DNA of 64,000 nt from NCBI GenBank assembly GCA_030647205.1, contig JAUSJO010000002.1, forward strand, positions 113,112 through 177,111. Direction: 5' to 3'. The notes under the pieces were generated by a model that was not told the origin of the DNA, did not search any database, and saw only the letters and a list, made by a program, of their open reading frames with translations. Below are positions 6,052 through 48,721 of the stretch, in pieces. Made by a program: the position numbers and the translations under genes. Within the stretch, counting starts at the first letter, position 1; every line of letters begins with the position of its first letter. Source of the DNA: a bacterium. Its GTDB lineage: Bacteria; Patescibacteriota; CPR2; UBA1875; JAJYID01.

Positions 6052-6063
6052 GATATTAAGGTA

Positions 6064-30489: not shown

Positions 30490-30490
30490 A

Positions 30491-31647: not shown

Positions 31648-31886
31648 TGAAGAAGAAGGATATTGTAGTTTTGATCATGTGTTCGTTAGTTATTTTTGCA
31701 TCACTATTTATTATCTTTGGAGGTTTATCAAAAAGCGCTCCTAAAACACAACCTCAAGTTAAAGAAAAAATGAACTTTAGTGGTGATATTCAAAAAGAAG
31801 ACATTGATAAGTTACTCAAAAGAAAAGATTATGGTGTGCCGCCGATGGATGGCATCGGCAGGGAAAATCCATTTGCTAGCCTTTAA
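31647..31886 (+). CDS. small membrane protein in pilMNO operon (PilP-like position)
   Basis: 79 aa, N-terminal TM. Start overlaps the upstream stop. Confidence 0.35.
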   Translation: MKKKDIVVLIMCSLVIFASLFIIFGGLSKSAPKTQPQVKEKMNFSGDIQKEDIDKLLKRKDYGVPPMDGIGRENPFASL

Positions 31887-31889
31887 GCC

Positions 31890-33665
31890 ATGCCTGTCAA
31901 AAACGAAAAAAAACTTGAAGAATTTTTAGTCAAGCTAGGCCTTGTAACAAAAAAGCAGCTTGACCTTATTAAAGTCCAGAGTGCAGAGTCCGGCAAATCT
32001 TTGGAACAGATACTAAAAGAAATGCCGAATATCAATAATGAAGAGATTTGTAAGGTCATTGCAGTGGCCTCTGACTTGCCTTATGTTGATATCACAGAAA
32101 AAAACATTGATCATAACATCTTAGATCTCCTGACAAAAAAAATTGCTGAAAAATATAGGATAGTGCCATTCGGGAAAATAGGCGACTTTTTAAATGTGGC
32201 GATGATAAATCCAAATGATATCCAGTCCATAGAGTATATTGAGAAAAAAACCGGTATGAAGTTAAAGCCCTACCTTGTTTCGGATAAGAGTATGGAAAAG
32301 GCTTTGGCCCAGTATGATGACTATTCTTTGGAGGTGGAGAGCGTAATTGGGGATATACAGAAAAAACAGGATCAGCCGGTAAAAGAAGAGGATACTAAAG
32401 ATAACCAAAAAGTTGCGACTATTACTCAAGATGCACCTATCACCAGAGCGTTAAATACCATACTTGAGTATGCCGCTAAGTCTAGGGCCTCTGATATCCA
32501 TATAGAGCCTAGAGACAAAGATGTGAAGGTCCGTTATCGTATAGATGGCATATTATACAATACTATGACTTTGCCGAAGCACATTCATCCGGCACTTGTT
32601 TCCAGGGTCAAGATTTTGTCGAGCTTAAAGATTGATGAGCACAGAGTTCCTCAGGATGGTCGTTTTCAACTTGCCACAGAAGGAAGAGAGATTGATCTGC
32701 GTATATCAATTACCCCTATCGTTTATGGAGAAAAAATTGTAATTAGGCTTCTTGATAAGACAAGCGGTATTATCACTCTTGAAAACTTAGGTATTAAGGG
32801 CAGGGCGTACAAAATTATTGAGGCAGGCATCCAAAAACCCCATGGAATGATTTTGGCGACCGGGCCTACGGGATCCGGTAAGTCAACGTCGCTGTATGCA
32901 GTGCTTACTAAGCTCAACAAACCAAGTGTAAACATCATTACTATAGAAGATCCGGTAGAATATAATGTTGATGGGGTGAACCAAATTCAAGTCAACAATG
33001 CGGTTGGTTTGACCTTTGCTTCAGGGCTTCGTTCGATGCTTCGGCAGGATCCGGATGTGATTATGGTTGGTGAGGTCCGTGACAAGGAAACTGCGGATCT
33101 GGCTGTTCAGTCAGCTTTGACGGGGCATACTGTTCTTACTTCATTACACACAAATTCTGCAGCAAGCGCTCTTCCTCGTCTGACTGATATGGATATAGAA
33201 CCATTTCTGATCGCATCTACTGTAAACACTATTATTGCCCAGAGATTGGTTAGAAGGATTTGTGACAATTGTAAGGAAGAGTATACAGCTACTCCGGCAC
33301 TGAGCAGGGCGATTAAAGAGTCATTGAAAGATATTTTGCCGTCAAAGGACGATGATCAGAAAAAAACCACAGATTTAGGTTTTGAAAATCTTCCTTTTAA
33401 AGAAGAGGAGAAGTTTAAGCTTTATCGCGGAAAAGGTTGTGAGTCATGTAAGAATACGGGCTTTTGGGGAAGAATAGGTGTTTACGAGGTTTTTACCATT
33501 AGCCAGAGAATTGAGGATTTGGTCATAGCTCGCGCTTCTGCCAGTGACATCCAAGCGGAGGCTATATCCGAAGGTATGGTAACGATGCGACAGGACGGAT
33601 TTTTAAAGGCTCTGGCGGGTATTACTACTCTAGAGGAAGTAGTCAGGACAACAACAGAAGATTAA
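31890..33665 (+). CDS. pilB: type IV pilus assembly ATPase PilB (GspE family)
   Basis: N-terminal GSPII_E_N domain, Walker A GPTGSGKST, tetracysteine motif CDNC...CESC. Confidence 0.9.
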   Translation: MPVKNEKKLEEFLVKLGLVTKKQLDLIKVQSAESGKSLEQILKEMPNINNEEICKVIAVASDLPYVDITEKNIDHNILDLLTKKIAEKYRIVPFGKIGDFLNVAMINPNDIQSIEYIEKKTGMKLKPYLVSDKSMEKALAQYDDYSLEVESVIGDIQKKQDQPVKEEDTKDNQKVATITQDAPITRALNTILEYAAKSRASDIHIEPRDKDVKVRYRIDGILYNTMTLPKHIHPALVSRVKILSSLKIDEHRVPQDGRFQLATEGREIDLRISITPIVYGEKIVIRLLDKTSGIITLENLGIKGRAYKIIEAGIQKPHGMILATGPTGSGKSTSLYAVLTKLNKPSVNIITIEDPVEYNVDGVNQIQVNNAVGLTFASGLRSMLRQDPDVIMVGEVRDKETADLAVQSALTGHTVLTSLHTNSAASALPRLTDMDIEPFLIASTVNTIIAQRLVRRICDNCKEEYTATPALSRAIKESLKDILPSKDDDQKKTTDLGFENLPFKEEEKFKLYRGKGCESCKNTGFWGRIGVYEVFTISQRIEDLVIARASASDIQAEAISEGMVTMRQDGFLKALAGITTLEEVVRTTTED

Positions 33666-33782
33666 GATTTTTGATTGAAATTTTGTCTTTGTCTGCTAAA
33701 TATAGAGATTGGCTAAAATAATTCTATTTCTAGGGTTGTAATCATAAACGGATTATCATAGAATTAAGTTATTGGAGGGAAT

Positions 33783-34856
33783 ATGGCTGAAAATACAAAA
33801 TTAAAAATAGAGAGCTTCCTAGAGGAAGTTATCAAGACAGATGCAAGTGATTTGCATTTGACTGTTGGTGTTCCGCCAATGCTTCGGGTTGATGGTGCTC
33901 TAAAACCAATAGAAGATGTCCGCGGGCTGACCGATAAAGATGTCCGAGATCTTACTTACTCTATTCTTGATGATGTCCAAAAAGATATTCTTGAACGAGA
34001 CAAAGAAGTTGATTTTTCATTTACTTATGGTGATCTTGCCAGATTCAGGGCAAATGCTTTTCATCAAAAAGGCAATATTGGCCTCGCTCTCCGTCTTATT
34101 CCTGTTGCGATTAGAAGTTTAACCCAACTTGGTATGCCTAAAATTGTAGATAAATTTACGGAGTTCCCAAGGGGTTTAGTCCTTGTAACGGGCCCAACCG
34201 GTTCAGGGAAATCAACTACACTGGCAGCAATGGTTGATAAAATTAACTCTGAACGTGCCTGTCATATTATTACTGTTGAAGACCCGATAGAGTATACGCA
34301 TTCGCATAAGAAGTCTGTAGTTGATCAACGTGAAGTACACTATGACACTCGTTCATTCGCAGCGGCTTTGAGGAGTGTGCTCAGAGAAGACCCGGATGTA
34401 GTTTTAGTTGGTGAAATGCGTGATCTTGAGACTATAGCGGCCGCGATCACAATTGCTGAGACCGGTCACCTTGTTTTGGCTACGCTTCATACGAATAATG
34501 CGGCTCAGTCTGTAGACAGAATGATTGATGTTTTCCCGCCGCATCAACAGCAGCAGATACGGGTACAGCTATCAAATATACTTCAAGGGATAATTTCTCA
34601 GCGCCTTATACCATCGATCGGTGGCGGACGCGTGGCTGCATCAGAAATATTGGTTGTTACACCAGCTGTTAGAAATATTGTCAGAGAGCAGAAAACCCAT
34701 CAGCTTGAGGCTGTTATCCAAACCGGTTCTTCCGAGGGCATGCAGGCTATGGACAGAACACTGGCAGGCCTCATTAAAACCGGTCGGGTAACACTAGACG
34801 AAGCAAAGGGTTATGCCATAGACGTTAAAGAGCTGGAAAGGCTTCTGCACGGATAG
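33783..34856 (+). CDS. pilT: twitching motility ATPase PilT
   Basis: GPTGSGKSTT, AAQSVDRMIDVFP, ~357 aa. Confidence 0.9.
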   Translation: MAENTKLKIESFLEEVIKTDASDLHLTVGVPPMLRVDGALKPIEDVRGLTDKDVRDLTYSILDDVQKDILERDKEVDFSFTYGDLARFRANAFHQKGNIGLALRLIPVAIRSLTQLGMPKIVDKFTEFPRGLVLVTGPTGSGKSTTLAAMVDKINSERACHIITVEDPIEYTHSHKKSVVDQREVHYDTRSFAAALRSVLREDPDVVLVGEMRDLETIAAAITIAETGHLVLATLHTNNAAQSVDRMIDVFPPHQQQQIRVQLSNILQGIISQRLIPSIGGGRVAASEILVVTPAVRNIVREQKTHQLEAVIQTGSSEGMQAMDRTLAGLIKTGRVTLDEAKGYAIDVKELERLLHG

Positions 34857-34859
34857 TAT

Positions 34860-36068
34860 ATGAAAGAGTATTCATACAAGGCTAGGAATGTACAAGGTGA
34901 TCTTATCCAGGGTAAGGTTGAAGCGGAGAGTAAGCAGGTTGCCTCAAATCTTTTGACTGCAAAGAAGCTTTTCCCGGTCGACATCAAAGAAGAAGCCCAT
35001 ACATCTTTCGGCATACCATTTCTAAAGACGATAAGAACAAAAGATAAGGTATTCTTCACCAGGCAGCTTGCCACAATGATTAACGCCGGGTTGCCTCTTA
35101 CTCAGTCTTTGCAGACGCTTTATAGCCAAACACAGTCGAAGTCGATAAGGAAAATGATTGAGCAGATGTTGCGTGATATAGAGTCAGGCAATGCTTTATC
35201 GGTTGCTTTGACGAGTTTTCCGGATGTTTTTAACAGGACTGACGTCAGTATGATTGCATCAGGTGAGGCAAGCGGAAAGCTTGATGAGGTGCTAGAGTAT
35301 ATGGCTGTGCAGTCGGAAAAGGGGTATAAAGTCGCCAGAAAAATAAGAACCGCTTTTATTTATCCCGCTTTTATTTTGGTTGTAGTTATAGCAGTTGCCT
35401 TGCTTATGTTAGTTTTTGTTCTTCCGCAAATGCAGGAGCTATACAAAAGCTTTGGGAACGCTCAGCTCCCTCTGCCGACAAGGATACTCATATCAGTAAG
35501 CGAAATCCTAAGGAAATATTATTTGCTTGTTATCCTTATTATTATTGCGATAGGAGCAAGCCTTAGGATATACGTCAGGACAGACACAGGAAAATATTTA
35601 TGGCATTCATTGAAACTTCGTTTGCCTTTGATTGGAAATTTTCTGCAGATGTCATACATGGCAATCTTTTCCAGAACTATGAGCAGTCTTGTTTCTTCGG
35701 GTGTACCTATTCTTGATGCGCTTAAGATCACCTCCGAAACCATGCCAAATATTATATATGAAAAAGCCATCATGGAAGTAAGGAGTAAGGTAAAACAAGG
35801 GAAAAATCTCTCGGGATCTATAAAAGAAACAGACCTTTTCCCTATAATGATCTCGCAAATGGTCGGGGTTGGTGAAAACACGGGAGAGATCGACAATATG
35901 CTAAAGAATTTAGCCGAGTATTATAGCGACGAGATTGATAACTGGGTAAAAAGCTTCCAGTCGCTTTTGGAGCCTATAATGATAGTTTTGATGGGGGGTA
36001 TAGTTGGTGGCGTGATTATTTCAATCATTATGCCGATATACAATGTTGGCGTTTTTGTGAAAAGATAG
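34860..36068 (+). CDS. pilC: type IV pilus platform protein PilC (GspF family)
   Basis: Two T2SSF domains, 402 aa, polytopic. Confidence 0.9.
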   Translation: MKEYSYKARNVQGDLIQGKVEAESKQVASNLLTAKKLFPVDIKEEAHTSFGIPFLKTIRTKDKVFFTRQLATMINAGLPLTQSLQTLYSQTQSKSIRKMIEQMLRDIESGNALSVALTSFPDVFNRTDVSMIASGEASGKLDEVLEYMAVQSEKGYKVARKIRTAFIYPAFILVVVIAVALLMLVFVLPQMQELYKSFGNAQLPLPTRILISVSEILRKYYLLVILIIIAIGASLRIYVRTDTGKYLWHSLKLRLPLIGNFLQMSYMAIFSRTMSSLVSSGVPILDALKITSETMPNIIYEKAIMEVRSKVKQGKNLSGSIKETDLFPIMISQMVGVGENTGEIDNMLKNLAEYYSDEIDNWVKSFQSLLEPIMIVLMGGIVGGVIISIIMPIYNVGVFVKR

Positions 36069-36080
36069 AAAGAAAGTATT

Positions 36081-36109
36081 TGACATAACATAAGCGCCTA
36101 GGATAATAT
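36081..36109 (+). promoter_or_regulatory. sigma70-like promoter for the major pilin gene
   Basis: TTGACA, 17 bp spacer, ATAATA. Confidence 0.45.
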
Positions 36110-36177
36110 TAGCTTGTAAATAGAAAATTTGTTTAATCAGAGCCAAATTTACAATTAAATGAGGCGGAGAGGTGAAA

Positions 36178-36591
36178 ATGAAAAAGTTAAATAGACAAGG
36201 TTTTACACTTATTGAGCTAGTTGTCGTTATGGCAATTATCGCTGTTCTTGCAGTACTAGTTGTAGGTGCTATCACAATAGCAAGAAATACAGCTAAAGAA
36301 ACTACACACAGAGCAAATGCAAAGGCTGTTCAAGCAGGGCTTGAGGCTAGATATAGCAGAACGAAAAACTATACAGGCATTTCTAGTGGCAACTTGAGTG
36401 CTATCGCAAGTGATACTTCAGTAAGCGCAGTTTTGCAAATGAGTAATGTTTGTAACAACGCCAGTTACAATGGTGGTGGAGCTGTAACATTCTCGACTGC
36501 TTCCGGATCACCGGCTTACACTATCAATGTAGCTAATGCTGCATGTGATAATACTAACTCCGGTGATAAGATTGACGGTCCTGTGAACTAG
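36178..36591 (+). CDS. pilA: type IV major pilin (prepilin)
   Basis: GGAGAGG RBS. MKKLNRQ-GFTLIELVVVMAIIAVLA class III signal and N-terminal helix. Confidence 0.85.
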   Translation: MKKLNRQGFTLIELVVVMAIIAVLAVLVVGAITIARNTAKETTHRANAKAVQAGLEARYSRTKNYTGISSGNLSAIASDTSVSAVLQMSNVCNNASYNGGGAVTFSTASGSPAYTINVANAACDNTNSGDKIDGPVN

Positions 36592-37715
36592 TTTTCTCGG
36601 GATCTACAAAGTACCGTACCTATAAGCTTATAGTGAATTTTGATAAGTTTACTATGTGTAAAAAGAGAGTTCGCTCTCTTTTTACAGTTTTGGGAGAACC
36701 TATGCTCTAGTTCGCTATCTTCTAATATTTTATTTATTGAATTTGACAAAGAGGTAGGATCTTTTGGGGTTACTACAAACCCGGTTTCATCGTTTTCATT
36801 GATCCAACTCGTGCCTGTGCCTATCTCTGTCGTTACCAGAGGTGTTCCACACGCCATTGCCTCTATCAAAACAATACCAAAGGCCTCACTCTTATATATC
36901 GACGGTAAAACGAAGACTGAGGCTGCTTTGTAGTAGTTATATAGCTCTCTATCTGGCTGATGACCCAAAAAGAAAACTCTTTTCTCCAGTCCGAGTTCAG
37001 CTGTTAGATTTTTTAGTCTCTTTTCTTCTTGTCCGGAGCCGATGATTACTAGGTTAGCAGAAACTTCTTTCATTGCTTCTATTAAGTATTGAACGCCTTT
37101 GTAATAACTGAGACGACCTACAAAAAGAACAAAATCTCCATATTTTTTTCTAATTTCAGCTACCTTTGTGCTGTCAATAGATGATTGTATTTTCTGAATG
37201 TCTGTTCCAAAAGGTATGACCACACATTTTTTCTCAAATTTTTCTAAATATGTTGAGTTTTTGATCATATTTGGATTTGAAACAATGATTTTCTCTGCTT
37301 TTTCCAGTGTGTGTAACGCGAACGGCTTGAGCAAAAGGCCAAATATTTTTTGCTTATATATATCAAAATGATAATGAACAATGATTTTCTGTTTTGGTCT
37401 GAAAAAGAATACTGCCAGATCAGCTAGGGGGAATGGCTGATGAATGGCAAGTAAGTCAAAATCTTTGGTAAGTTTTCTAAATTGGGCAAAGAAAGAAAAA
37501 GAGATGGGCATGCTTTTAAATATACCAAAACTCGAGGCCTTATAAATCTTTATTCCATTTATTTTCTCAGTTGCATTTGGTCCTTTCGGTTGGCAGCACA
37601 AAACTTCGACTCTTGTATGGTTTCTATCATTCAACCCTTCAGTAATATCCTGAACGGCCTTTTCTACGCCTCCGATCCATGGATAGTATAGTTTAGTTAT
37701 TTCTAGTATCTTCAT
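36588..37715 (-). CDS. glycosyltransferase family 4 (GT-B)
   Basis: GT1/GT4 EX7E-type C-terminal domain. Start taken at MKILEITKLYYPW. Confidence 0.75.
   Translation of the reverse strand: MKILEITKLYYPWIGGVEKAVQDITEGLNDRNHTRVEVLCCQPKGPNATEKINGIKIYKASSFGIFKSMPISFSFFAQFRKLTKDFDLLAIHQPFPLADLAVFFFRPKQKIIVHYHFDIYKQKIFGLLLKPFALHTLEKAEKIIVSNPNMIKNSTYLEKFEKKCVVIPFGTDIQKIQSSIDSTKVAEIRKKYGDFVLFVGRLSYYKGVQYLIEAMKEVSANLVIIGSGQEEKRLKNLTAELGLEKRVFFLGHQPDRELYNYYKAASVFVLPSIYKSEAFGIVLIEAMACGTPLVTTEIGTGTSWINENDETGFVVTPKDPTSLSNSINKILEDSELEHRFSQNCKKRANSLFTHSKLIKIHYKLIGTVLCRSREN
36656..36690. terminator. bidirectional terminator between pilA and the convergent glycosyltransferase block
   Basis: AAAAAGAGAG-ttcg-CTCTCTTTTT. 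Confidence 0.6.
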
Positions 37716-38697
37716 TTTCAGATATCCATTTAAAAATTTCTTTAGAGCTAATGTTTTTATTAATAAGCCACTTATACATAACAATTGGTTTAACTACTTT
37801 GTTTTGTAAATACCGTAGAAAGCCTTCTGTTTTAGTATAAATACTCTTGGAAGATAGAGATGTTGTAAACAAGAGCAATGAGCTGGGGCTAGGGGATAAG
37901 CCATAGGACTTTAAAAGGTATTGTCTGCCTTTTTTTAGATTGCCATCTAGACAAAGGTAATTACCAATTCTGAAAAAATATTTTGATTTTTCTTTTTTGT
38001 TTAGGGTCGTTTGGTTGGCATTAGGAAGCAACGATTTATATCTCTGAGAGATTATTTTAGGGTCTCTAGCATTGGTAATTGAATTTTGGTTTTCATGTCT
38101 AAAGTAGATAGTCAGTGGGTCTTCGATTAAGGGTACTTTGTCCAAGTTATTTTTAGTCAGGTACCGATAAAAAAAACCGAACTCATCAACACCATTTTGT
38201 TCTTGCATAAAATATCCTAGGTCATCAAAGACTTTTCTTTTTACTGCCCAATTAAGTGGTGCATGAGCCTCAATACTTAACATCTTTCTTCTTTTTGTAT
38301 CATATGTCCAGCCAAGGCTTGTTATAAATTCAATCTCCTGGTGCTCTTCCAGATAAGAGATCTTATTTGATATATTGTTTGGCAGATACATGTCATCTTG
38401 GTCAATGAACATAATATATTCGCCTACAGAAGCTTTTATAGCTTTAGTCCTTGGCAGGGCGGGTCCTCCGGAATTTGTGTTTGATTCAATCAATTTTATT
38501 CTTTTATCGTTAGAAGAGATGTCTTTAATGATTTTTACGGTTTTGTCATCTGAGCAATCATCAACAATGATCAGTTCCCAGTCCTTAAAGTTCTGTTTTA
38601 TAATGCTGCTGATTGCTCTAAATATAGTTGATTGCCCGTTAAATGTTGGCAGTATAACGGACACTAGTTTATGATTATGCGTGTTTTTCGTTTTCAT
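37693..38697 (-). CDS. glycosyltransferase family 2
   Basis: VSVILPTFNG...DDCSDD...FIDQDD GT-A motifs. Confidence 0.8.
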   Translation of the reverse strand: MKTKNTHNHKLVSVILPTFNGQSTIFRAISSIIKQNFKDWELIIVDDCSDDKTVKIIKDISSNDKRIKLIESNTNSGGPALPRTKAIKASVGEYIMFIDQDDMYLPNNISNKISYLEEHQEIEFITSLGWTYDTKRRKMLSIEAHAPLNWAVKRKVFDDLGYFMQEQNGVDEFGFFYRYLTKNNLDKVPLIEDPLTIYFRHENQNSITNARDPKIISQRYKSLLPNANQTTLNKKEKSKYFFRIGNYLCLDGNLKKGRQYLLKSYGLSPSPSSLLLFTTSLSSKSIYTKTEGFLRYLQNKVVKPIVMYKWLINKNISSKEIFKWISENEDTRNN

Positions 38698-38703
38698 TTT
38701 TGT

Positions 38704-39528
38704 TTATCTAACTAAAAATCTGACAATAAAATTCCTGCCTTTTCGAAATAACATTCTATAATCTCCTTTTTTGACGTATGGCAGGGAATATTCGATAATG
38801 TTTTTGGGGAAATATTTTAAATATGATCTGAAGTGTTTTTTTTGAATTTTTTTCCATCTTTTCCTATTGTTATTATGGGTTACATTGTCTCTCGAACCTT
38901 TATGTTTTCTATAAAGGTGGAGGGGATTGTCTATATAAAATCCTCTTGATCCTGTTTCTGCCATTGATAGCCAAAGATCCCAATCCTCCGGCGTATCTTC
39001 CATGGAGATATCTATGCCTCCCGAGATATCATAAGCCTCTCTTTTCATAACAGATGCTCCGCCAATATAATTATATAGAAACAGTAAGCCAGGAGAAAAA
39101 GTCGTCGATTTTTGAATAATATTGCTATCACCGAACAATTTCATTGATGTATAGACAATATCTATATTCGGCTTTTTTTTGAAAGCATCGATACATGTGA
39201 TAAGGTACTTTTTATCAAGTATATCATCCGAGTCCATAAACATAAGGTATTCTCCTTTTGCTAGATTAGCACCTTTGATCTTAGAATAGCATACACCTTT
39301 GTTCTCTTGGTTTTTATATAGTTTTATTTGCTTATTTTTAGTATATTTTTTTAGCACTTCTTCTGTATTATCTGTTGAACCATCGTCAACAATAATTAAC
39401 TCAAAATTTTTATAAGCTTGGTTTAACACCGAAGCTATTGCTTCATCAATAAAAGGTCCATAGTTATAAGTTGGCATAACAATGCTCACATTATCCTTTT
39501 TGTATCTATTTTGTTCTTTTATAGTCAT
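38704..39528 (-). CDS. glycosyltransferase family 2
   Basis: VSIVMPTYN...DDGSTD...FMDSDD motifs. Confidence 0.8.
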   Translation of the reverse strand: MTIKEQNRYKKDNVSIVMPTYNYGPFIDEAIASVLNQAYKNFELIIVDDGSTDNTEEVLKKYTKNKQIKLYKNQENKGVCYSKIKGANLAKGEYLMFMDSDDILDKKYLITCIDAFKKKPNIDIVYTSMKLFGDSNIIQKSTTFSPGLLFLYNYIGGASVMKREAYDISGGIDISMEDTPEDWDLWLSMAETGSRGFYIDNPLHLYRKHKGSRDNVTHNNNRKRWKKIQKKHFRSYLKYFPKNIIEYSLPYVKKGDYRMLFRKGRNFIVRFLVR

Positions 39529-40799
39529 TAATTCTCTTGAATTTTTAAATAAAAATAATATTGAATTATAAACACCAACCCAACTGCTATGAGGGTAGAG
39601 ATGGCTGCTCCGTTTAAAGAATATTTAGGAATGAGAAGGAAGTTTAGTATTAGATTAACAGCTGCTCCCCAAAGAGTTGCCTTAAAAATATTTTTCTGTA
39701 AATGTGCAGCAATCAAAGTTTGGGATAAAGGATATATTAGTATTGTTAGGAAGGCCATAATCATGAGGATTTGAAACGGTAAAACTGACTGTAGATAATC
39801 TGGCCCAAATATTAGATGAATGATTTGGCTTGCGCATAGAATACCAATTGTTAAAGTAGCCAAAGCTAAAATAAAAGAGATTTTAAGATAAGATTTTCCT
39901 ATGTTTTTAAATCTTTTCATTGATTTGGAGTAGGTGGCGTTAATTTCTGGCGCAAAACTCCTATTTATCAAAAATGCCGGTAAGAGTGCAACTCCTATGA
40001 CTCTATAAGCGGCGTTATACCAACCAACTTGTGTTATTTGTCCATAGTAGCCCATCATGACAGAGTCCATGTCATTGTAGATCATTGAAAAAATACTGGT
40101 GAGGATAAGGGGCCAAGACATTAGAATATACTTTTGCCAAATATCGATTGATATTTTTGCTTTATTTTTTTTATTTCTCTTTAAAATATAAAGTATTGTT
40201 ATATATATGGCTGCCGCTGATCCTGATAAGGCATAACTTATACTTAGACTTGTAGATGATTTGAACTGACTCAGTAAAAAAAAGCCAAGAGATACGACCA
40301 GAAAAGCTTGGATAACTTTAGCTAAAGACTCGTAGTTCATTTTCTGTTTTGCTTGAAAAAATGCAAAGAAAAAATCACTAATGCTATTTGTAATCATAAA
40401 CACTGATAGAATTAGGATCGATCTTTCTACCAAAGTATCAGTTATAGTTAGTTTACTGATTATAAAAACGGCTGTTAGCACAACAAATGACAGTGCGAAT
40501 TTTAACCATAATACACTCTCAAATTCGTTCTCACCTTTCTTGTTCTGCGAAATTTCCCTTGAGGTTATTTGTGAAAGTCCCAAATCTGCGAAGACAGTAA
40601 AGATCATTACGAAAGATAAAGCAAAGGAAAATTGACCAAAGCCAGTTGGTCCTAGTATTCTGGTTGCATAGACTATTAGAGCGAACTTGGAAAGTCTAGT
40701 GATTAGCTCGGCTATTGACAACCATATAGTGTTTTTGGTGATAGTTCTTTTCTCCTGGGTTCCGAAAAGCATTCTTTTAACTGTTTCTACTACTGTCAT
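39528..40799 (-). CDS. wzx: oligosaccharide flippase (Wzx / polysaccharide biosynthesis family)
   Basis: ~12 TM, 423 aa, MOP-superfamily pattern. Confidence 0.7.
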   Translation of the reverse strand: MTVVETVKRMLFGTQEKRTITKNTIWLSIAELITRLSKFALIVYATRILGPTGFGQFSFALSFVMIFTVFADLGLSQITSREISQNKKGENEFESVLWLKFALSFVVLTAVFIISKLTITDTLVERSILILSVFMITNSISDFFFAFFQAKQKMNYESLAKVIQAFLVVSLGFFLLSQFKSSTSLSISYALSGSAAAIYITILYILKRNKKNKAKISIDIWQKYILMSWPLILTSIFSMIYNDMDSVMMGYYGQITQVGWYNAAYRVIGVALLPAFLINRSFAPEINATYSKSMKRFKNIGKSYLKISFILALATLTIGILCASQIIHLIFGPDYLQSVLPFQILMIMAFLTILIYPLSQTLIAAHLQKNIFKATLWGAAVNLILNFLLIPKYSLNGAAISTLIAVGLVFIIQYYFYLKIQEN

Positions 40800-40800
40800 G

Positions 40801-42153
40801 CTATCTACCTGCTGCTTTAAATATCTGGTGCACAGTCTTTAATATGATCTTTAGATCCATAAAGAAATTTCTATTTTTGATGTAGTAAAGTTCATACTCT
40901 AACTTTTCTCTCGCATCATCGGTGGTTGTTTCATAGAAAGAACGGATTTGTGTCATGCCCGTTATACCTGGTTTGACAAGATGCCTAATTGAATAAAAAG
41001 GTATTTCTTTTGATAGTTTTTCTTCAAACTCAGGTCTCTCAGGCCTTGGACCGACCAAAGACATGTTACCTACGAGAACATTTAAGAGTTGAGGGATCTC
41101 GTCAAGGTGTGTACGGCGAAGGAAGCCGCCAACTCCTGTGACACGCGGATCATTCGGTTCAGCCCATTGGGGCCCGTTCTTCTCGGCATTTTTAACCATA
41201 GTCCGAAACTTTATAATTTTAAAGTTTTTGCCCGATATCCCCACCCTTGTTTGCTTGAATAAGATAGGTCCAGGGCTCGTTATTTTAACAGCGATAATTA
41301 TAAAAGGGACAATTGGCAGGAAAACAGTTCCAAGGAGGAGGCTTACAAAAAAATCAAATCCTCTCTTAACTATCTCTTGGATTTTCTTTTCACCTTTTGC
41401 AAGATTTTCTAAAAACCAAAACTCATCAAGTGCGTCTAGGCTAACTTTTGAGTTAATATCTTCATAAAATCTGTTTAAAGACAAAAACTCTATGTTGAGC
41501 GGGATGCTGTTATATAGACTACTGACACTTTCTTTGGTCAGATGTGGGTTCAGGCTTGAAATAACAACCTTAACTTTGTTTTTGGACAAGAAGTCAAAAA
41601 GTTGTCCATGGTCAGGTATTACTTTTACTCTGTCTTTTCCAAGATTGACTTTTTCAGTAGGGGCGAAAGCGACTATCTTGTATCCTGTGTGAGGATTATT
41701 ACGAAGAAACTCCGATACTTTTTGGTAGTATTTCTCATTGCCTAGAAAAAGAGCTTTTTTCGAAGGAAGAGTTAGCTTCAAGGCTTTCGCCATGAAAAGT
41801 CTGGAGGGCAGGAAAAGAAATGTAAAAAGAAATGTAAAAAGAAAGAGGTTGGTTTTAGGGGCGATAGGTGTTTGGAAGAAATAAAAGAGAGTTATGGCGA
41901 GAGTAAAGTTTATCGCCATAACTTTCAAAGTTTTAGAGAAAAGATCGGTTTTATTCCTCCAGTAGTCGAGCTCGTATAGGTCAGAGGCGTAAAAGCTGAA
42001 AATAAGGATTAAAAATAAAATAGAAAAAAGTTTGTAGTGCAAGTTCCAGTTATAGAGAAAATCTGACGGATATCTTATCACTATAAATAGAGCCAAGCTT
42101 CCATAGAAAACAAACAAATCACTCAAAAGTATGGCGAACTTCTTTAAGCCCAT
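40801..42153 (-). CDS. undecaprenyl-phosphate sugar phosphotransferase (WbaP/bacterial sugar transferase)
   Basis: C-terminal catalytic domain FKIIKFRTM...GPRPERPEF...KPGITG. Confidence 0.85.
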   Translation of the reverse strand: MGLKKFAILLSDLFVFYGSLALFIVIRYPSDFLYNWNLHYKLFSILFLILIFSFYASDLYELDYWRNKTDLFSKTLKVMAINFTLAITLFYFFQTPIAPKTNLFLFTFLFTFLFLPSRLFMAKALKLTLPSKKALFLGNEKYYQKVSEFLRNNPHTGYKIVAFAPTEKVNLGKDRVKVIPDHGQLFDFLSKNKVKVVISSLNPHLTKESVSSLYNSIPLNIEFLSLNRFYEDINSKVSLDALDEFWFLENLAKGEKKIQEIVKRGFDFFVSLLLGTVFLPIVPFIIIAVKITSPGPILFKQTRVGISGKNFKIIKFRTMVKNAEKNGPQWAEPNDPRVTGVGGFLRRTHLDEIPQLLNVLVGNMSLVGPRPERPEFEEKLSKEIPFYSIRHLVKPGITGMTQIRSFYETTTDDAREKLEYELYYIKNRNFFMDLKIILKTVHQIFKAAGR

Positions 42154-42251
42154 TTTAAATCCTTTTTAGTAAGTACCTGATATTATAGCTAAAAAACTTA
42201 TACTTGTCAGGTGTGTTCTGTCCGTTACTCACATTATATGTAGGGGTTGTA

Positions 42252-44672
42252 TCACTTTCTTAGGGAGTCTATTGCCTTTAAAACGCCGTCTATATCTTGT
42301 TTAGACTCGGGGTCGATGATAGCTATCTTTTTTGCCACTTCGCTTGCTTTGTCTAGTTCCCTTAAATTCATCTCGAACAAAACTATTTGAAAGAGCAGAT
42401 CAGTATCAGAACTTTCTGCTATATATCGATCAATCTCTCTTTCGTAATTTCTCAAAACAATCTCTCGGTAGATAGCAACTCTCTCAAGGGAAATGGCTTT
42501 ACGTGACTCATCCAAGAGACATTGAGTTAGTATGTTCCGTTTGCCATCCACATTTTTTTGATTTAATGATTTTCCCAAATAAATTTTGAAGTTTTTCTCC
42601 GATTTCTCCCTATCTCCTTGTTTTAAGGCTATCTCAAAAAGATGTTTGCTTGTCTCGGGATTCTCGGGGGGGTCGAAGTTTTTAACCTTGTCTAAAACCT
42701 GATAAGCCTTATCGTACTCATTATTATTTGCATAAAAGGTGGCCAGATCATAGTATCCGGAGAGCAGTTTCGGACTTTTTTGCAAAAGTTTTTCATAGTT
42801 TTGAATGGCAATGTTATGATATTCAGCCTTTTTGTCGGAAGCCATTATGTATATTTGTCCCCAGGCGATGAGGGGATATGTTCTAAGGCTCCCGATCTTT
42901 ACTAGCTGTTTTTCTTCTAAGTCAAAGAAAGCCCAAAAAAGTTTGTCGTTTTTTTGTCTTGATAGCAAATCAAATGTATCTAAAACTGCCTTATCCACTT
43001 CTTGTCCGTTCAAGACAGATAAGCTTAAAGATTTTTTATAAAGGTCTACCGCTTCTTCAAAATGCTGTTGATTAACAGCATTGATTGCTCTGTTGAAATA
43101 ATACGAGGCAAGAGCCGGCTTGAAGTTGAATGACCACATAGATACAGTGATCACGTAAAATGCTGTAATGATAGCTATTATTTTCAAGGGTCCGGAGAGA
43201 AATCTGTATCGCTTGAAGTCTATCTTTTTATCGGAAAAGGCGTTTGCCACAAAAGAGGATCTCTCTTTTTTATCATAAAAGTTTACTTCCTTTGTTATAA
43301 AGACCAAAATCAGAAAAAAGAAGATGTAGGAAACTATAGTATCAAAAACGAAAAGATTCTGAATGAAATAAGCAAAAAGCAGACCGACCAAAGAGGCCAT
43401 AGCAAGCGGTGGCGAACGCAGAGCCTGTTTTTTGCCGGAGGTTTCTTTTTTTATAATCTTTAAAAGAGCGAAGGTGACCGCTGCAAAAATACCTAAGTAA
43501 GCTATGAGTCCAACTATGCCTTGGGTGACTGCAGTATCAACTACTATATTGTGAGCTTTATCGAAGTGAGCTCCGCTAAGACCTTCTCCCTCATATAGTT
43601 TTGGATCGTAGTATCTGATGTACGCCATTTTAAAGTTGTCTACCCCCCACCCTAAAATAGGTTTTTCCTTAAAAGCGTCATAAGAAAGTCTCCAAAGAGT
43701 GAAACGCCTGTTTCCTTCAGAAAGGGTAATTTTGGAGACAAACTTAAGGGGAGTGCTTTTGACCAGGCTTGAGTCTTTGTTTTGATAGGCGAAAAGAGTG
43801 AGCATTGATACGATTGCTATAAAAGAAACTGTCACAATAAACAAGCGGCTTCGGAAAAACTTTTGCTTCGTGGAAAATTTTTTATAGACAAAAATAGTAA
43901 AGAAGACAAACATTCCTCCCAAAAGGCCTATCATACCTCCCCTTGTTCCTGTCAGCAGAAGGGTTGTTATAAGAATCCCGAAACACAAAAAATAAATGAT
44001 TTTCTCCAGATTCCGGTTTGTTTTTAATGCTAAAAATAATGAGATGAATATATTGGATATCAAGTAAGAAGCAAAAAAGCTGGGATGCTGCATAGTTCCT
44101 TGGATTCTGCTCATTGTCGCTAAAATACGAAAATTATTCTCAACGATTGCGCTGAAGGAAACCGCCAGCGCAATGATTACAGAGAACTTAAATAGATTTA
44201 TAAAAAATTTATTGTCAAAGACAGTAAAAATAATCGCAAAAAAGATAAAAAGATGAGACAGAGTCAAAAATCCCAGCATTCTCTGGACATCTGAAAAAAA
44301 GCTAAAACTAGGATCGGCGCTAAACATTGTAGAAACGATAACGGAAAACATAAATGTGGCAATAAAGGAAACGATGGCTAGGCTTATCCCACGCAGTTTT
44401 TTCCATGGCTCTCTCCATCTTGGCTTAAAAAGCAGTAGCCACAACCACGGTAGTGCCATGATCTCAATAATGATCCTGAAAGCAAAAACTTTATCCTGAG
44501 AGCCCGTTATTAAAAGACCGGAGGCAACAAGAGGCAACGCAAGGATAGATAATGTACCAATTTTCAGCAGTAAAACACAAAAATATTCTGCACCGAACAT
44601 AGTGCTGTCATTGGTTTTTTTGTTAGGAAAAATCATTAAAATACTTTTCTTAAGGGATTGATTGATAGCCAT
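42252..44672 (-). CDS. O-antigen ligase (Wzy_C) domain membrane protein with C-terminal TPR repeats; candidate pilin O-oligosaccharyltransferase
   Basis: Polytopic N-terminal half with a Wzy_C-like region, then ~300 aa of TPR-like repeats. The ORF-track N-terminal 63 aa are the antisense of the pilin gene and are excluded. Confidence 0.65.
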   Translation of the reverse strand: MAINQSLKKSILMIFPNKKTNDSTMFGAEYFCVLLLKIGTLSILALPLVASGLLITGSQDKVFAFRIIIEIMALPWLWLLLFKPRWREPWKKLRGISLAIVSFIATFMFSVIVSTMFSADPSFSFFSDVQRMLGFLTLSHLFIFFAIIFTVFDNKFFINLFKFSVIIALAVSFSAIVENNFRILATMSRIQGTMQHPSFFASYLISNIFISLFLALKTNRNLEKIIYFLCFGILITTLLLTGTRGGMIGLLGGMFVFFTIFVYKKFSTKQKFFRSRLFIVTVSFIAIVSMLTLFAYQNKDSSLVKSTPLKFVSKITLSEGNRRFTLWRLSYDAFKEKPILGWGVDNFKMAYIRYYDPKLYEGEGLSGAHFDKAHNIVVDTAVTQGIVGLIAYLGIFAAVTFALLKIIKKETSGKKQALRSPPLAMASLVGLLFAYFIQNLFVFDTIVSYIFFFLILVFITKEVNFYDKKERSSFVANAFSDKKIDFKRYRFLSGPLKIIAIITAFYVITVSMWSFNFKPALASYYFNRAINAVNQQHFEEAVDLYKKSLSLSVLNGQEVDKAVLDTFDLLSRQKNDKLFWAFFDLEEKQLVKIGSLRTYPLIAWGQIYIMASDKKAEYHNIAIQNYEKLLQKSPKLLSGYYDLATFYANNNEYDKAYQVLDKVKNFDPPENPETSKHLFEIALKQGDREKSEKNFKIYLGKSLNQKNVDGKRNILTQCLLDESRKAISLERVAIYREIVLRNYEREIDRYIAESSDTDLLFQIVLFEMNLRELDKASEVAKKIAIIDPESKQDIDGVLKAIDSLRK

Positions 44673-44760
44673 AATCAGATATTTATCCACACTAAACTTA
44701 CTGTTTTTACTTGCAAAGTATAACATAACTGGTTTATTATTGCATAAAGAGGGTCTTAAA

Positions 44761-45369
44761 ATGAAAAAAAGTGCATCGCAAAAAGGTTTTACGCTTATTG
44801 AACTAGTTGTTGTTATGACTGTGCTGGCGTTTTTAGCAACACTAGTAGTTGGGGCAATCATTATAGGTCAGAGACAGTCAAAAAATACAAAGTATTTAAA
44901 TGATGCCAAAGATATAAAGGCTGCGCTTGAAGCCTATCGTATAAACGAACAGAGTCGTGGATTTTCGGGGAAGTATCCATATTGTGAGACTTGTGGTGGC
45001 GGCGCGGGGGCTAACTATAGTAGGATTAACGCATATGATCTTTTAAACCCTACCTTAACAACAAAGACAGCAGGACAAGCCGCGGGGGATTTGACGCCTT
45101 ACGTGGGTTCGGACGTCACGGGTCCGGCTGATAGGATATGTTATAGTTCATATGGCACGAGTCCATATGGAGGGGATTACTGGTTTTGGATTATAACCGA
45201 AGAAGAGGCGAAGGATCATGTGTGCCGTTGTCCATCGCCTAATCCGGGTTCCTTAAAGTGTGGTTATTATACTGCTGCCGAAGGCAGTAAGATACACTGT
45301 CCTAAAGCAGTTGCTGACGATCCACAAAAGAGTATAGATAACGGTTGTTTCAAAGAAAAAAGCTTTTAA
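44761..45369 (+). CDS. type IV pilin-like protein with Cys-rich C-terminal domain
   Basis: MKKSASQK-GFTLIELVVVMTVLAFLA prepilin N-terminus. C-terminal domain with ~10 Cys. Confidence 0.75.
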   Translation: MKKSASQKGFTLIELVVVMTVLAFLATLVVGAIIIGQRQSKNTKYLNDAKDIKAALEAYRINEQSRGFSGKYPYCETCGGGAGANYSRINAYDLLNPTLTTKTAGQAAGDLTPYVGSDVTGPADRICYSSYGTSPYGGDYWFWIITEEEAKDHVCRCPSPNPGSLKCGYYTAAEGSKIHCPKAVADDPQKSIDNGCFKEKSF

Positions 45370-45405: not shown

Positions 45406-46206
45406 ATGTTATATGTAATTTTATTCTCACTGTTTTTTCTTGGCCTTATCGTTGGTAGTTTTTTAAATGTGGTTGTTTATCGGCTAGAAGATAAAAAAAG
45501 GAAGAATATAAGAGGCCGTTCTTTTTGCCCTCACTGCAGGGAGAAAATTAAAGCCTATGATTTGGTCCCTGTTTTATCCTGGATTATATTAAAAGGAAAA
45601 TGCCGAAGCTGCAAAAAGGAGATTTCTGTCCAATATCCTTTGGTAGAGCTTGCTACCGGCTTGGTTTTTGCTGTCCTTGGCTATATTTTTCTCCAGGGAT
45701 TGACTTTTTCAATAGCGAGTTTAGTAAATTTGGTTTTTTGGTTCTTTTTTACTGGATGCGTCATAACGGTCTTTGTTTATGACTTAAAGCACCAAATCAT
45801 ACCTGATGAGATCATTTACACTGCCTTGGTCGTAGCGTTAGTATTTGTTGGCTTAAATACCGGACTCACCGACAACTTCGAATATTTAACAGAACATCTT
45901 CTTGCCGGTTTTCTCGCCGGTGGGTTTTTCTACTCTTTGGCAGCTGTTTCAAAAGGTAAATGGATGGGCGGTGGAGATATTAAACTGGTGGCATTTATGG
46001 GGCTGGTGCTTGGCTGGAAGGGGGCGATCATCGCACTTTATACAGCGTTTATTCTAGGAGCACTTATAGGATCTTTCTTTTTACTGACTGGCAGGAAAAA
46101 GATGGGTTCAAAAATACCCTTTGGGCCGTTTCTGGTGATTGGAACATTTATAGGACTTCTTTTTGGTGAACAAATCGTTAACTTTTATGTTAGTATGTTT
46201 ATGTAA
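45406..46206 (+). CDS. pilD: prepilin peptidase (A24 family) PilD
   Basis: CPHC...CRSC zinc motif, polytopic, two catalytic Asp regions. Confidence 0.9.
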   Translation: MLYVILFSLFFLGLIVGSFLNVVVYRLEDKKRKNIRGRSFCPHCREKIKAYDLVPVLSWIILKGKCRSCKKEISVQYPLVELATGLVFAVLGYIFLQGLTFSIASLVNLVFWFFFTGCVITVFVYDLKHQIIPDEIIYTALVVALVFVGLNTGLTDNFEYLTEHLLAGFLAGGFFYSLAAVSKGKWMGGGDIKLVAFMGLVLGWKGAIIALYTAFILGALIGSFFLLTGRKKMGSKIPFGPFLVIGTFIGLLFGEQIVNFYVSMFM

Positions 46207-46226
46207 CTTTTTAAAAGAGGGTGAAA

Positions 46227-46709
46227 ATGGTTGATTTAAAAGGTAAAAAAGGCTTTACACTCATCGAAATAGTTGTAGTTATGACGATTATCGCTGTTCT
46301 TGCAGCGCTTGTTGTCGGGGCTATTATGATCTCCAAAAGAATGGCTACCGAAACTGCAAATAGACAGAACGCCCGGACAATTCGCACCTGTCTTGAGGCA
46401 TACTCCGCTAAATATAAAAAATTTTGCGGTGGTGGCATAGATCCCGGTGGGTTTCGTCTATTGTGCAATCAGACGTACAGCTTTAAAGGAGCGGTATATG
46501 CTTTGTCTGATCCTAATAATCAAATACAGTGCTCATTGGGTAGCGGAGCTACGAATATCACCGATAATTCAGGAGACCCATCATTTTGGACATGGCCAAA
46601 TGGCGGAGGGAGTATTATAGCAACCGAGCAGAGCTATATAATCAAAACCAGTAATGCCGCTGGGGATGCTCAGCCCGGAGGGGTGATAGATACCGCTACA
46701 TATCCTTAG
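46227..46709 (+). CDS. type IV pilin
   Basis: MVDLKGKK-GFTLIEIVVVMTIIAVLA. Confidence 0.8.
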   Translation: MVDLKGKKGFTLIEIVVVMTIIAVLAALVVGAIMISKRMATETANRQNARTIRTCLEAYSAKYKKFCGGGIDPGGFRLLCNQTYSFKGAVYALSDPNNQIQCSLGSGATNITDNSGDPSFWTWPNGGGSIIATEQSYIIKTSNAAGDAQPGGVIDTATYP

Positions 46710-46809
46710 CCGTACAAGTTTAGTGGATAAAAACAAGATATTTATGCTACTATAGATATAAGTGAATTTATGATAGCCATGAGTTAGAAACTATAAAGGA
46801 AGTATTGTT

Positions 46810-47550
46810 ATGTGGAGGGTTCCAAAAAGTAAAAAAAAGCTTGTCTCAAAAAGCAACGGGGGATATACGCTGGTGGAGATGATAGTGATTATGGCGATAT
46901 TATCTGTAATTATGATTCTATCTTTTGGCGCATACGGTAGTTCAAGGAAAGGGCAGTATGTCCAGAATATAACCACTCTTACACAACTCGGTAGCAGAGA
47001 AGTGTTTTCGGATGTTATTTCTACAAAAAAAATAGATGGCAATGGAGGCAACTGCGCTAACAGGGCTCCTCAACTGAAGGCGTTACGCGTCAAGCTTGGA
47101 GAGTCTTTTAACCCTCTTGATAAAGTATCTCTTTGCATAGGTAGTGCGGGCATACTTACAACAAGCGCTCCAGAGGCCCTGGACGGATCGATGACATATA
47201 ATGAAAAAGTAGTGGCCAAGTTTAGCGGAACGGTTAACGGTACTACTATAAGCGATGCGCAGCAAGGTTCTGTATATTTGGTTTTTACAAGTCCATTTGG
47301 CCAATACCATGCTTTTTATGATGATGCGGGGACTGATCCTGACTTTCTCTTATATCTTGGTATCCCCGATACGGGGATGGGCCTAACACCACAATGGCAA
47401 AACGTAGACAATAGAAACTTTGTCTATCTCCCGGTTAATACTGACAAAGAGGTACAGACAGACATGACCATTAAAATAAGCCTGGCAAGTAACGGCGGTA
47501 TTACAAATGATATCATAGTAAGTAGTGTTGGTAATGCGAAAGTAAAATAA
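46810..47550 (+). CDS. minor pilin / pseudopilin
   Basis: GGYTLVEMIVIMAIL prepilin-type N-terminus. Confidence 0.7.
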   Translation: MWRVPKSKKKLVSKSNGGYTLVEMIVIMAILSVIMILSFGAYGSSRKGQYVQNITTLTQLGSREVFSDVISTKKIDGNGGNCANRAPQLKALRVKLGESFNPLDKVSLCIGSAGILTTSAPEALDGSMTYNEKVVAKFSGTVNGTTISDAQQGSVYLVFTSPFGQYHAFYDDAGTDPDFLLYLGIPDTGMGLTPQWQNVDNRNFVYLPVNTDKEVQTDMTIKISLASNGGITNDIIVSSVGNAKVK

Positions 47551-47553
47551 AAT

Positions 47554-48713: not shown

Positions 48714-48721
48714 ATTTGATT

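Follow-up and report, generated by a model that had tools for sequence, protein, structure and literature searches.

A candidate pilus-dedicated O-glycosylation island within a Patescibacteria type IV pilus locus

Main

Pilin O-glycosylation by Wzy_C-type enzymes is already well known in Proteobacteria. In the PglL/PglO systems of Neisseria, Burkholderia, Vibrio and Acinetobacter, an initiating polyprenyl-phosphate hexose-1-phosphate transferase (PGT), glycosyltransferases (GTs) and a flippase are followed by a Wzy_C-domain enzyme that transfers the lipid-linked glycan en bloc to Ser/Thr in pilin and in other proteins; its Arg/Arg/His catalytic residues are common to WaaL, and pglL genes often adjoin pilin genes, with 21 of 31 PglL homologues lying beside pilin genes or another target (PMC3643930). 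TfpO, TfpM and PglS are encoded beside their pilins as well (PMC9829042). Here we describe a block of six glycan-synthesis genes embedded in the type IV pilus (T4P) locus of a 428-kb contig (JAUSJO010000002.1) from the metagenome-assembled genome of an uncultured, ultra-small member of the Patescibacteria, of which we analysed a 64-kb stretch, hereafter the window. One of the six encodes a Wzy_C-domain protein with C-terminal TPR repeats. On the basis of gene content, conservation and modelled structure, we favour with moderate confidence a reading of the block as a putative self-contained, pilus-dedicated island for en bloc O-glycosylation.

The block resembles the PglL systems in this series of functions and in its adjacency to pilin genes, the Wzy_C gene lying divergent from the gene for a pilin of 202 residues (pilin202). 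It differs in lacking the PglL_A domain, in the size of the enzyme (806 residues, compared with 550-600 in PglL) and in the TPR superhelix of about 300 residues that accounts for part of that length. The host also differs, being a member of the monoderm Patescibacteria in which a lipopolysaccharide (LPS) pathway is not expected, and all genes of the glycan pathway lie inside the pilus locus instead of at another site in the genome.

TfpO and TfpM are enzymes of 420-470 residues without TPR repeats that modify the C-terminal Ser/Thr of pilins, and for PglS a larger outward-facing C-terminal domain has been proposed to aid recognition of an internal sequon (PMC9829042). The block shares with TfpO (also named PilO) of the Pseudomonas aeruginosa group I pilin island and with TfpM of Moraxellaceae a location in the variable pilin region of a T4P locus as an accessory element that is present in some strains and absent from others. 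The catalytic His is conserved, and in one relative (L091) the Wzy_C gene immediately follows a pilin gene and shares its strand; that arrangement is confined to L091, whereas the window genes are divergent. TfpO uses O-antigen units made elsewhere, whereas the present island encodes its own glycan pathway.

Wzy_C enzymes also act on S-layer proteins. WsfB, an O-oligosaccharyltransferase (O-OTase) for the S-layer of Paenibacillus alvei, consists of a Wzy_C domain and C-terminal TPR repeats, whereas WsaB of Geobacillus stearothermophilus lacks the repeats and is encoded next to a stand-alone TPR protein, WsaA; export of the G. stearothermophilus glycan uses an ABC transporter and not Wzx (PMC2943079). 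Both enzymes come from monoderm hosts and lie inside a dedicated glycan gene cluster, as does ours, and WsfB shares its architecture, which is the only level at which we compared the two; their target is the S-layer protein and not pilins. Both the closest sequence match and the closest solved fold are those of the O-antigen ligase WaaL (Escherichia coli; Cupriavidus metallidurans structure 7TPG). WaaL has 12 transmembrane (TM) helices, lacks TPR repeats and uses lipid A-core as acceptor, a pathway not seen in the window. Patescibacteria are generally described as lacking LPS, and a lipid A-core acceptor would not be expected.

Six glycan genes among pilus genes

We identified genes by open reading frame (ORF) listing and by Pfam and NCBIfam profile searches, and all coordinates are window positions. 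The block runs from 36588 to 44672 on the minus strand, between pilC-pilin and pilin-pilD of a plus-strand T4P locus without a secretin. A first-pass annotation of this DNA had placed six glycan genes here, and all six were recovered at the positions it gave, with strong profile support (Table 1). Its description of the boundaries also held: at one end the GT4 gene converges on the gene for a 139-residue pilin, their stop codons overlapping by 4 nt, and at the other the Wzy_C gene abuts pilin202 across a short divergent spacer. The length of 807 residues given there for the Wzy_C-TPR protein, by comparison, includes the stop codon; the protein itself was correctly recognised and has 806 residues counted from M64 of an 869-residue ORF. 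In NCBI it is named 'O-antigen ligase family protein [bacterium]' (MDO8507149.1).

From the PGT gene to the GT4 gene, neighbouring genes overlap or are separated by no more than 6 nt; the mechanical ORF for GT4 extends to 37784, with the ATG at 37715 as its likely start. The PGT scored 390.8 bits against TIGR03025, above the curated cutoff of 295.55, which places it among the large PGTs. We leave the identity of the first sugar unassigned because the NCBIfam equivalog models for WcaJ and WbaP both scored below their cutoffs. NCBIfam matches to IctB and to Hps, Pgl and Eps glycosyltransferases lay far below cutoff and were not used for naming. The GC content of the block is 0.32-0.39, compared with about 0.41 in its flanks.

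Profile searches found no Wzz/PCP chain-length regulator, tyrosine kinase, LCP protein or second Wzy_C protein in the block or its flanks. The gene set of PGT, three GTs, Wzx and a single Wzy_C protein matches an en bloc O-glycosylation pathway, without polymer-specific functions. Within the 64-kb window, which was the extent of these searches, there were no LPS genes, and no S-layer gene was recognised.

A WaaL-like enzyme with a predicted outward-facing TPR domain

By catalytic signature and modelled fold, the Wzy_C-TPR protein is a predicted ligase-type enzyme. In an alignment of 28 homologues, R244 (in a TGTRG motif), R323, G341, G343, D371 and H374 were invariant and N375 and G388 nearly so. 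The segment H374-N375-IVVDTAVTQ-G385-IV-G388 matches the ligase motif H[NSQ]X9GXX[GTY], and the Arg/Arg/His trio of the enzyme corresponds to R215/R288/H338 of E. coli WaaL and R224/R298/H349 of PglL (bioRxiv 10.1101/2022.10.31.514599; PMC3643930). In hhalign, the family profile and E. coli K-12 WaaL matched across 250 columns at a probability of 93.4% (E 2.4e-7), with the catalytic residues paired, compared with probabilities of 0.3% for the polymerase WbbH (O16) and 0.5% for the enterobacterial common antigen polymerase WzyE, two members of a very diverse class. Pfam Wzy_C likewise matched E. coli WaaL and neither WbbH nor WzyE. Grouping with true polymerases, named in the first-pass annotation as an outcome that would speak against pilin glycosylation, was not seen for these two; of the profile comparison it had proposed, the WaaL side came out positive and the PglL side negative, as weighed below.

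The structure of C. metallidurans WaaL (7TPG) was both the best and the sole significant solved-structure match to the membrane domain (phmmer E 1.8e-8; Foldseek E 1.5e-6, target-normalised TM-score 0.65). An AlphaFold2 (AF2) model of the whole protein had a mean pLDDT of 84.5 and a pTM of 0.83; its TPR domain consists entirely of alpha-helical pairs (pLDDT about 90), and Foldseek matched the C-terminal 300 residues to the generic TPR superhelices of OGT, SPY and CTPR. Hydropathy analysis showed K/R-rich loops (81-94, 264-276, 405-424 and 460-491) alternating with the catalytic loop (296-375). From the approximately 13 TM segments and the positive-inside rule, we infer that the TPR domain faces outwards, on the same side of the membrane as the active site.

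An apparently ancestral but dispensable block

The same interval holds the block in four other contigs (L001, L002, L091 and L095), in either orientation and down to 39% PilD identity, and in these and the window a pilin gene or pilD is in every case the immediate neighbour of the Wzy_C gene. In L001, where Wzy_C is 89% identical to the window protein, it lies between pilin genes, adjoining the pilin202 ortholog, and one pilin gene separates Wzy_C from PGT. In L002 (Wzy_C 46% identical), the order Wzy_C-PGT-Wzx-methyltransferase-GT4-GT4 stands between pilC-pilin and pilin-pilD. L091 has the same order of six genes in this interval, co-directional with the pilus genes (PGT 45% and PilD 39% identical); there, a pilin gene with a promoter-like site and a terminator-like hairpin with a 9-bp stem is followed 82 bp downstream by Wzy_C. 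In L095, pilD and the Wzy_C-TPR gene diverge across 91 bp, PGT follows Wzy_C-TPR, and the membrane domain is 47% identical to that of the window.

Wzy_C, PGT, Wzx and the last GT4 gene are conserved, whereas the middle glycosyltransferase cassette varies, comprising two GT2 genes in the window and a methyltransferase and a GT4 gene in L001, L002 and L091. Identity to the window PGT is 94% in L001, 87% in L090 (a further contig), 81% in L002 and 45% in L091; for the last GT4 it is 80%, 71% and 54% in L001, L002 and L091, respectively. Wzx identity drops alongside the cassette swap, to 60-64% in L001 and L002 (64% in L001, where PGT stands at 94%) and to 45% in L091. Block genes and T4P genes diverge in parallel: between the window and L091, Wzx is 45% and Wzy_C 33% identical, beside PilC at 44% and PilB at 58%, and between the window and L002 the PGT and GT4 values above stand beside 77% for PilB and 67% for PilD. 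Wzy_C evolves fast, and in the comparison with L002 its catalytic loop is 71%, its TM regions 45-50% and its TPR domain, the most diverged part, 40% identical.

In L090, positions 1-1266 correspond to window positions 42252-43517, and there the C-terminal 421 residues of Wzy_C are only 38% identical beside the 87% identical PGT. Such a contrast points to either recombination or a very rapid divergence of the TPR end relative to the neighbouring gene.

A PGT search found no orthologous block (PGT above 60% identity) at a non-pilus site; identity fell from 87% directly to 45%, and the match at 45% again lay in a T4P locus. Five relatives (L085-L089) share the T4P synteny without the block, their genes running SurA-like, pilM, N, O, a 79-residue ORF, pilB, T, C, pilins, pilD, minor pilins, integrase and ComEC. 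A neighbour-joining tree of PilB, PilT, PilC and PilD (1546 ungapped columns, 200 bootstraps, rooted on L091) gave the topology (L091+, (WIN+, (L086-, ((L085-, L002+), (L089-, (L088-, L087-)))))), in which WIN is the window and plus and minus signs denote presence and absence of the block; the ingroup without the window was supported at 99.5%. Carriers stand at the root, at the base of the ingroup and nested within it, and presence of the block is therefore probably ancestral. Because L085-L089 retain the T4P synteny without it, the block is also dispensable. On this tree, the simplest history would comprise an ancestral block, at least three losses (or loss and regain at one site) and one inversion.

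A large enzyme family with a pilus-linked subfamily

Enzymes of this kind are widespread. The Wzy_C profile matched all 28 sampled homologues and TPR profiles matched 25 of them, so that the TPR fusion, considered unusual in the first-pass annotation, is in fact common; it was already known from WsfB (PMC2943079). Among the best 120 homologues listed, all have Wzy_C, most are 650-800 residues long with TPR repeats, and those with a named source come from Patescibacteria groups, save one labelled Nanoarchaeota. A scan of species-representative genomes confirmed at least 563 relatives, and an exhaustive phmmer search confined to the membrane domain gave, at E <= 1e-30, 1042 representative clusters. 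Among the 150 best representatives, about 140 have 640 residues or more. Scans of metagenome contigs with the window protein and with a three-member alignment of its subfamily found no relatives.

Within the exhaustive phmmer search, the subfamily formed by the window protein, L002, L095 and L091 stands apart, with scores of 510, 366 and 312 bits and 196 bits or fewer thereafter. All five subfamily members with visible context (window included) lie in T4P loci, compared with 3 of 80 loci in the wider family, whose homologues are 24-34% identical. In those 80 loci, PGT is a neighbour in about 22 and Wzx in about 12, and no more than the 3 have T4P genes inside a distance of 10 kb. Two of these three (L026 and L044, each with a pilin gene at that distance) were set aside as weak support, with SecA and a bactofilin-like gene intervening.

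Two Portnoybacteria-like loci, L083 (5320-14225) and L084 (3050-19508), encode an unannotated protein of about 1210 residues, a stand-alone TPR protein of 230 residues, a TPR-less Wzy_C protein and a Wzy_C-TPR protein, and L084 contains an inverted duplication of the entire module. The 230-residue TPR protein followed by the TPR-less Wzy_C resembles the split WsaB and WsaA layout, here within Patescibacteria. The module may represent a pair of O-OTases together with a large surface-protein substrate.

Pilins or other acceptors

A predicted ligase-type enzyme, an en bloc gene set, deep retention among pilin genes and the typical position of known Wzy_C O-OTase genes beside those of their pilin substrates together lead us to favour pilus-dedicated O-glycosylation. 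Several observations weigh against it. PglL_A (PF15864) and Wzy_C_2 were absent from all 28 family members, including the window protein, even at E <= 1, and for want of the PglL_A motif we rejected membership of the PglL family. The wider family pairs with PGT and Wzx genes rather than with pili, and the enzyme type is therefore not intrinsically pilin-specific. The five T4P-embedded loci share ancestry, possibly from one ancestral insertion, and do not count as independent events. Five relatives with matching synteny lack the block, the window block is on the strand opposite to the pilus genes, and the pilin-pilD interval holds other cargo, namely an IS200-type Y1_Tnp gene in L087 (9251-9934) and AbiEii in L089 (9011-9790). 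In the literature we found no glycoproteomic data for Patescibacteria pili, only a GlycoPP prediction for TM7x pilins (PMC12206443).

No acceptor motif was found in the pilins. The first-pass annotation had likened the system to PilO/TfpO and suggested a search for C-terminal Ser/Thr-rich acceptor regions. The window pilins end in ...GPVN, ...EKSF and ...ATYP and those of L091 in ...ATF and ...PTF, and the TfpO analogy fails on the acceptor because no pilin ends in Ser/Thr. Together with the size of the enzyme, these C-termini led us to reject C-terminal glycosylation of the TfpO/TfpM type. Stretches rich in Ser, Thr, Ala and Pro do occur, such as 'TASGSPAYT' in the 139-residue pilin and 'SLASAAAALSPS' in a 170-residue pilin of L091, and they are equally frequent in the pilins of block-less loci. 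Neither C-termini, Ser/Thr content nor the best Ser/Ala/Pro windows separated block-carrying from block-less loci. We regard the 'SGSP' insertion of a window pilin as an anecdote and not as an acceptor lead.

The pilins adjacent to Wzy_C end in ...EKSF in the window (44761-45369) and L001 (6723-7334), in ...SKAF or ...SKSF in L002 (8211-9877) and in ...PATF or ...LPTF in L091 (6999-7511 and 15652-16176). We considered ...KSF/...KAF ends as a mark of carriers and rejected them, as a Ser/Thr plus aromatic end is also found in some block-less loci (...GLTF and ...GPSF).

Pilin glycosylation is therefore what we infer from gene context, because PglL_A and an acceptor feature are missing, the wider family is not pilus-linked and five relatives are block-less. 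The dedicated pilin glycosylation proposed in the first-pass annotation is partly supported: the gene set agrees with it and the conserved position strengthens the link to pilins, whereas PglL_A, an acceptor signature and a family-wide link to pili were not found.

The enzyme might alternatively serve general surface glycosylation or ligation to non-pilin acceptors, such as an S-layer, other surface proteins, a glycolipid or a cell-wall anchor, with the locus being one old inherited insertion and pilins at most one of several substrates. We consider this unlikely. It would account for a family of more than 1000 clusters with PGT or Wzx neighbours and few pili, for the paralogous Wzy_C(-TPR) genes beside the unannotated proteins of about 1210 residues in L083 and L084, for the unrelated cargo accepted by the pilin-pilD interval and for the missing pilin acceptor signature. 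S-layer O-OTases, moreover, follow the same domain logic in WsfB and WsaB (PMC2943079). WaaL enzymes can reportedly also glycosylate proteins in general. What argues against this alternative is the sharp separation of a subfamily whose visible contexts are all T4P loci, the fact that the position among pilin genes outlasted an inversion and a divergence that reaches 39% PilD identity, and the pilin gene lying between Wzy_C and PGT in L001.

A second alternative, to which we assign a similarly low probability, is a pilus-associated surface polysaccharide (capsule, exopolysaccharide or slime) that T4P require or help to export, the Wzy_C-TPR protein then being a Wzy-type polymerase or polymerase-ligase. 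T4P motility of Myxococcus depends on exopolysaccharide, cyanobacterial hormogonium polysaccharide (hps) loci mix glycosyltransferases with pseudopilins, and TPR domains scaffold polysaccharide export in other systems. Wzx, Wzy_C, PGT and GT genes are also the core of Wzx/Wzy-dependent loci, the PGT model TIGR03025 is named 'exopolysaccharide biosynthesis', and the conserved T4P linkage fits a polysaccharide as well as it fits pilin glycosylation. The enzyme also has a weak match to TIGR04370, 'oligosaccharide repeat unit polymerase', which is below threshold (24.4 bits, cutoff 40). However, its signature is ligase-type, with similarity to WaaL and none detectable to WbbH or WzyE (two polymerases of a very diverse class), and neither in the block nor beside it is there a chain-length regulator, tyrosine kinase, LCP-type anchoring enzyme or second Wzy_C.

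Incidental co-location, in which a mobile low-GC glycan island unrelated to pili has landed in an insertion hotspot, would fit the low GC, the opposite strand, the patchy presence and the insertion sequence (IS) and toxin-antitoxin cargo in the matching interval, but it is very improbable given one position in five contigs over deep divergence, co-divergence of block and T4P genes, a block interior free of mobility genes and carriers that do not form a single shallow clade.

A possible pathway and its implications

If the block is a pilus-dedicated O-glycosylation island, synthesis would begin with the PGT, which would place a hexose-1-phosphate on undecaprenyl phosphate as the first unit of the glycan. 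GT4 and the two GT2 enzymes would lengthen it to a short oligosaccharide of about four sugars, and Wzx would flip the product, still lipid-linked, across the single membrane to its outer face. There, the WaaL/PglL-like Wzy_C enzyme would move the glycan to a hydroxyl group of pilins that are still anchored in the membrane and have yet to join the fibre, and the outward TPR domain of about 300 residues may recognise the pilin or the assembly machinery. The size of the glycan, its reducing-end sugar, the outward position of the TPR domain, the use of pilins as acceptors and any part played in recognising hosts or evading phages are all predicted elements of this scheme.

We found no described Patescibacteria Wzy_C-TPR enzyme or pilin glycosylation pathway in the literature searched. 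What would be new here is a TPR-fused, T4P-embedded subfamily in monoderm Patescibacteria, a private glycan pathway inside a pilus locus, its ancestral-but-dispensable distribution and cassette-type variation of the glycan. More tentatively, and with less than even confidence, we propose that the TPR-fused WaaL-like clade may be an unrecognised class of pilin O-OTase distinct from PglL, TfpO, PglS and TfpM, the first in monoderm ultra-small episymbionts, inherited with its own pathway in a T4P operon and gaining pilin recognition from an extracellular TPR domain. By extension, the family of more than 1000 clusters, often with several paralogues per genome, would comprise protein O-glycosylation enzymes whose acceptor specificity is set by the TPR domain, and the GT cassette would tune host recognition or phage evasion.

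T4P are among the best-conserved surface machines of Patescibacteria (the candidate phyla radiation, CPR), and those of cultivated Saccharibacteria drive attachment to the host, competition and motility (PMC12206443). A glycan pathway with a swappable cassette that travels with pilin genes is a candidate means by which episymbionts could diversify the surface of their main contact organelle. The locus also gives a starting point for assigning function to the very large and unstudied Wzy_C-TPR family, which is annotated 'O-antigen ligase' where O-antigen is not expected. Should the TPR domain confer protein specificity, such enzymes may be of glycoengineering interest, as are PglL, PglS and TfpM.

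The surrounding locus

The order of the T4P core genes is that of L085-L089 and L091, and pilC is followed by an orthologous first pilin in all relatives. Pfam matches support PilM (PilM_2, E 4e-53), PilN, PilO, PilB and PilT (T2SSE, E 8.6e-131 and 4e-51, respectively) and PilC (T2SSF, E 9e-65). The T4P locus tolerates insertions, as relatives hold unrelated cargo within it.

Table 1 Features of the glycan block and the surrounding T4P locus
Feature	Position	Strand	Evidence and remarks
Upstream T4P core: pilM, pilN, pilO, 83-aa ORF, pilB, pilT, pilC	29449-36068	+	Pfam
First pilin, 139-aa ORF, probable Met at 36178; candidate major pilin and glycan acceptor	36172-36591	+	N_methyl E 1.2e-8; GFTLIE
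GT4 glycosyltransferase, 375 aa; conserved last block gene	36588-37715	-	Glycos_transf_1 E 5.9e-51
GT2 glycosyltransferase, 334 aa; variable middle cassette	37693-38697	-	Glycos_transf_2 E 3.8e-29; lowest GC of the block
GT2 glycosyltransferase, 274 aa; variable middle cassette	38704-39528	-	Glycos_transf_2 E 1.1e-35
Wzx/MOP-family lipid-linked oligosaccharide flippase, 423 aa	39528-40799	-	Polysacc_synt E 1e-39, 137 bits (cutoff 28.2)
PGT, large polytopic WbaP/WcaJ-type, 450 aa	40801-42153	-	Bac_transf E 6.8e-67
Promoter-like site CTGACA-17-TATAAT, then AAGGA and ATG	42182-42210	-	11/12 consensus match only; in the 98-bp Wzy_C/PGT gap
Wzy_C protein with C-terminal TPR, 806 aa	42252-44672	-	Wzy_C 82.2 bits (gathering cutoff 31.7); TPR_2, TPR_19
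TPR/helical-repeat domain, aa 511-806, predicted extracytoplasmic	42255-43142	-	TPR Pfam matches, AF2 model
Membrane domain, aa 1-510, about 13 TM helices	43143-44672	-	Wzy_C profile, hydropathy
Catalytic outer loop, aa 296-375	43548-43787	-	Within membrane domain
Divergent spacer between Wzy_C and pilin202 start codons, 88 bp	44673-44760	.	Sequence
Second pilin (pilin202), 202 aa, Cys-rich, ends ...EKSF; candidate acceptor	44761-45369	+	N_methyl E 2e-7
Prepilin peptidase PilD	45406-46206	+	A24_N_bact E 2e-32; Peptidase_A24 E 3.6e-17
Third pilin (162 aa), minor pilins (246, 181 and 205 aa) and 529-aa protein	46221-50305	+	N_methyl for pilins

Further promoter-like sites were found ahead of the first pilin (36080-36107, 11/12 match) and for pilin202 (44711-44740, 9/12 match); the region-wide count in the promoter/terminator scan, 35 compared with 29.6 +/- 4.5 in shuffles, is not clearly above chance, and only the positions of the best sites are suggestive.

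The 529-residue protein at the end of the minor-pilin operon (48716-50305, plus strand) had no Pfam or NCBIfam match. At the equivalent position, relatives encode proteins with FG-GAP repeats (L085), a faint B_lectin match (L088) and an Ig-like domain (L091), and the position fits a variable slot for a pilus-tip adhesin. Between pilB and pilT, L088 (6160-6549) and L089 (3526-3909) carry a bAvd/23S_rRNA_IVP-family gene.

The 3' side of the T4P locus holds an integrase and then ComEC, and the remainder of the window contains housekeeping genes, among them recA, lexA, ftsK, RNase J, EF-P and ruvB; an Rfam scan of the window matched only tRNA-Met at 54927. Far upstream, at 4339-6375 on the plus strand, six tandem paralogous ORFs of 103-123 residues (GC 0.35-0.37) are translationally coupled. 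In each, a short ectodomain that contains Cys and bears a 'YGFP/YGWP' motif lies between an N-terminal and a C-terminal TM helix, and a basic tail is also present; the three members scanned had no Pfam match. In the window (29449-53998), L085-L089, L002 and L091, the secretin-less T4P locus is always followed by a tyrosine recombinase gene on the opposite strand, ComEC and a gene of the metallo-beta-lactamase fold. Retention of this synteny among relatives suggests a supra-operon for pilus function and DNA uptake.

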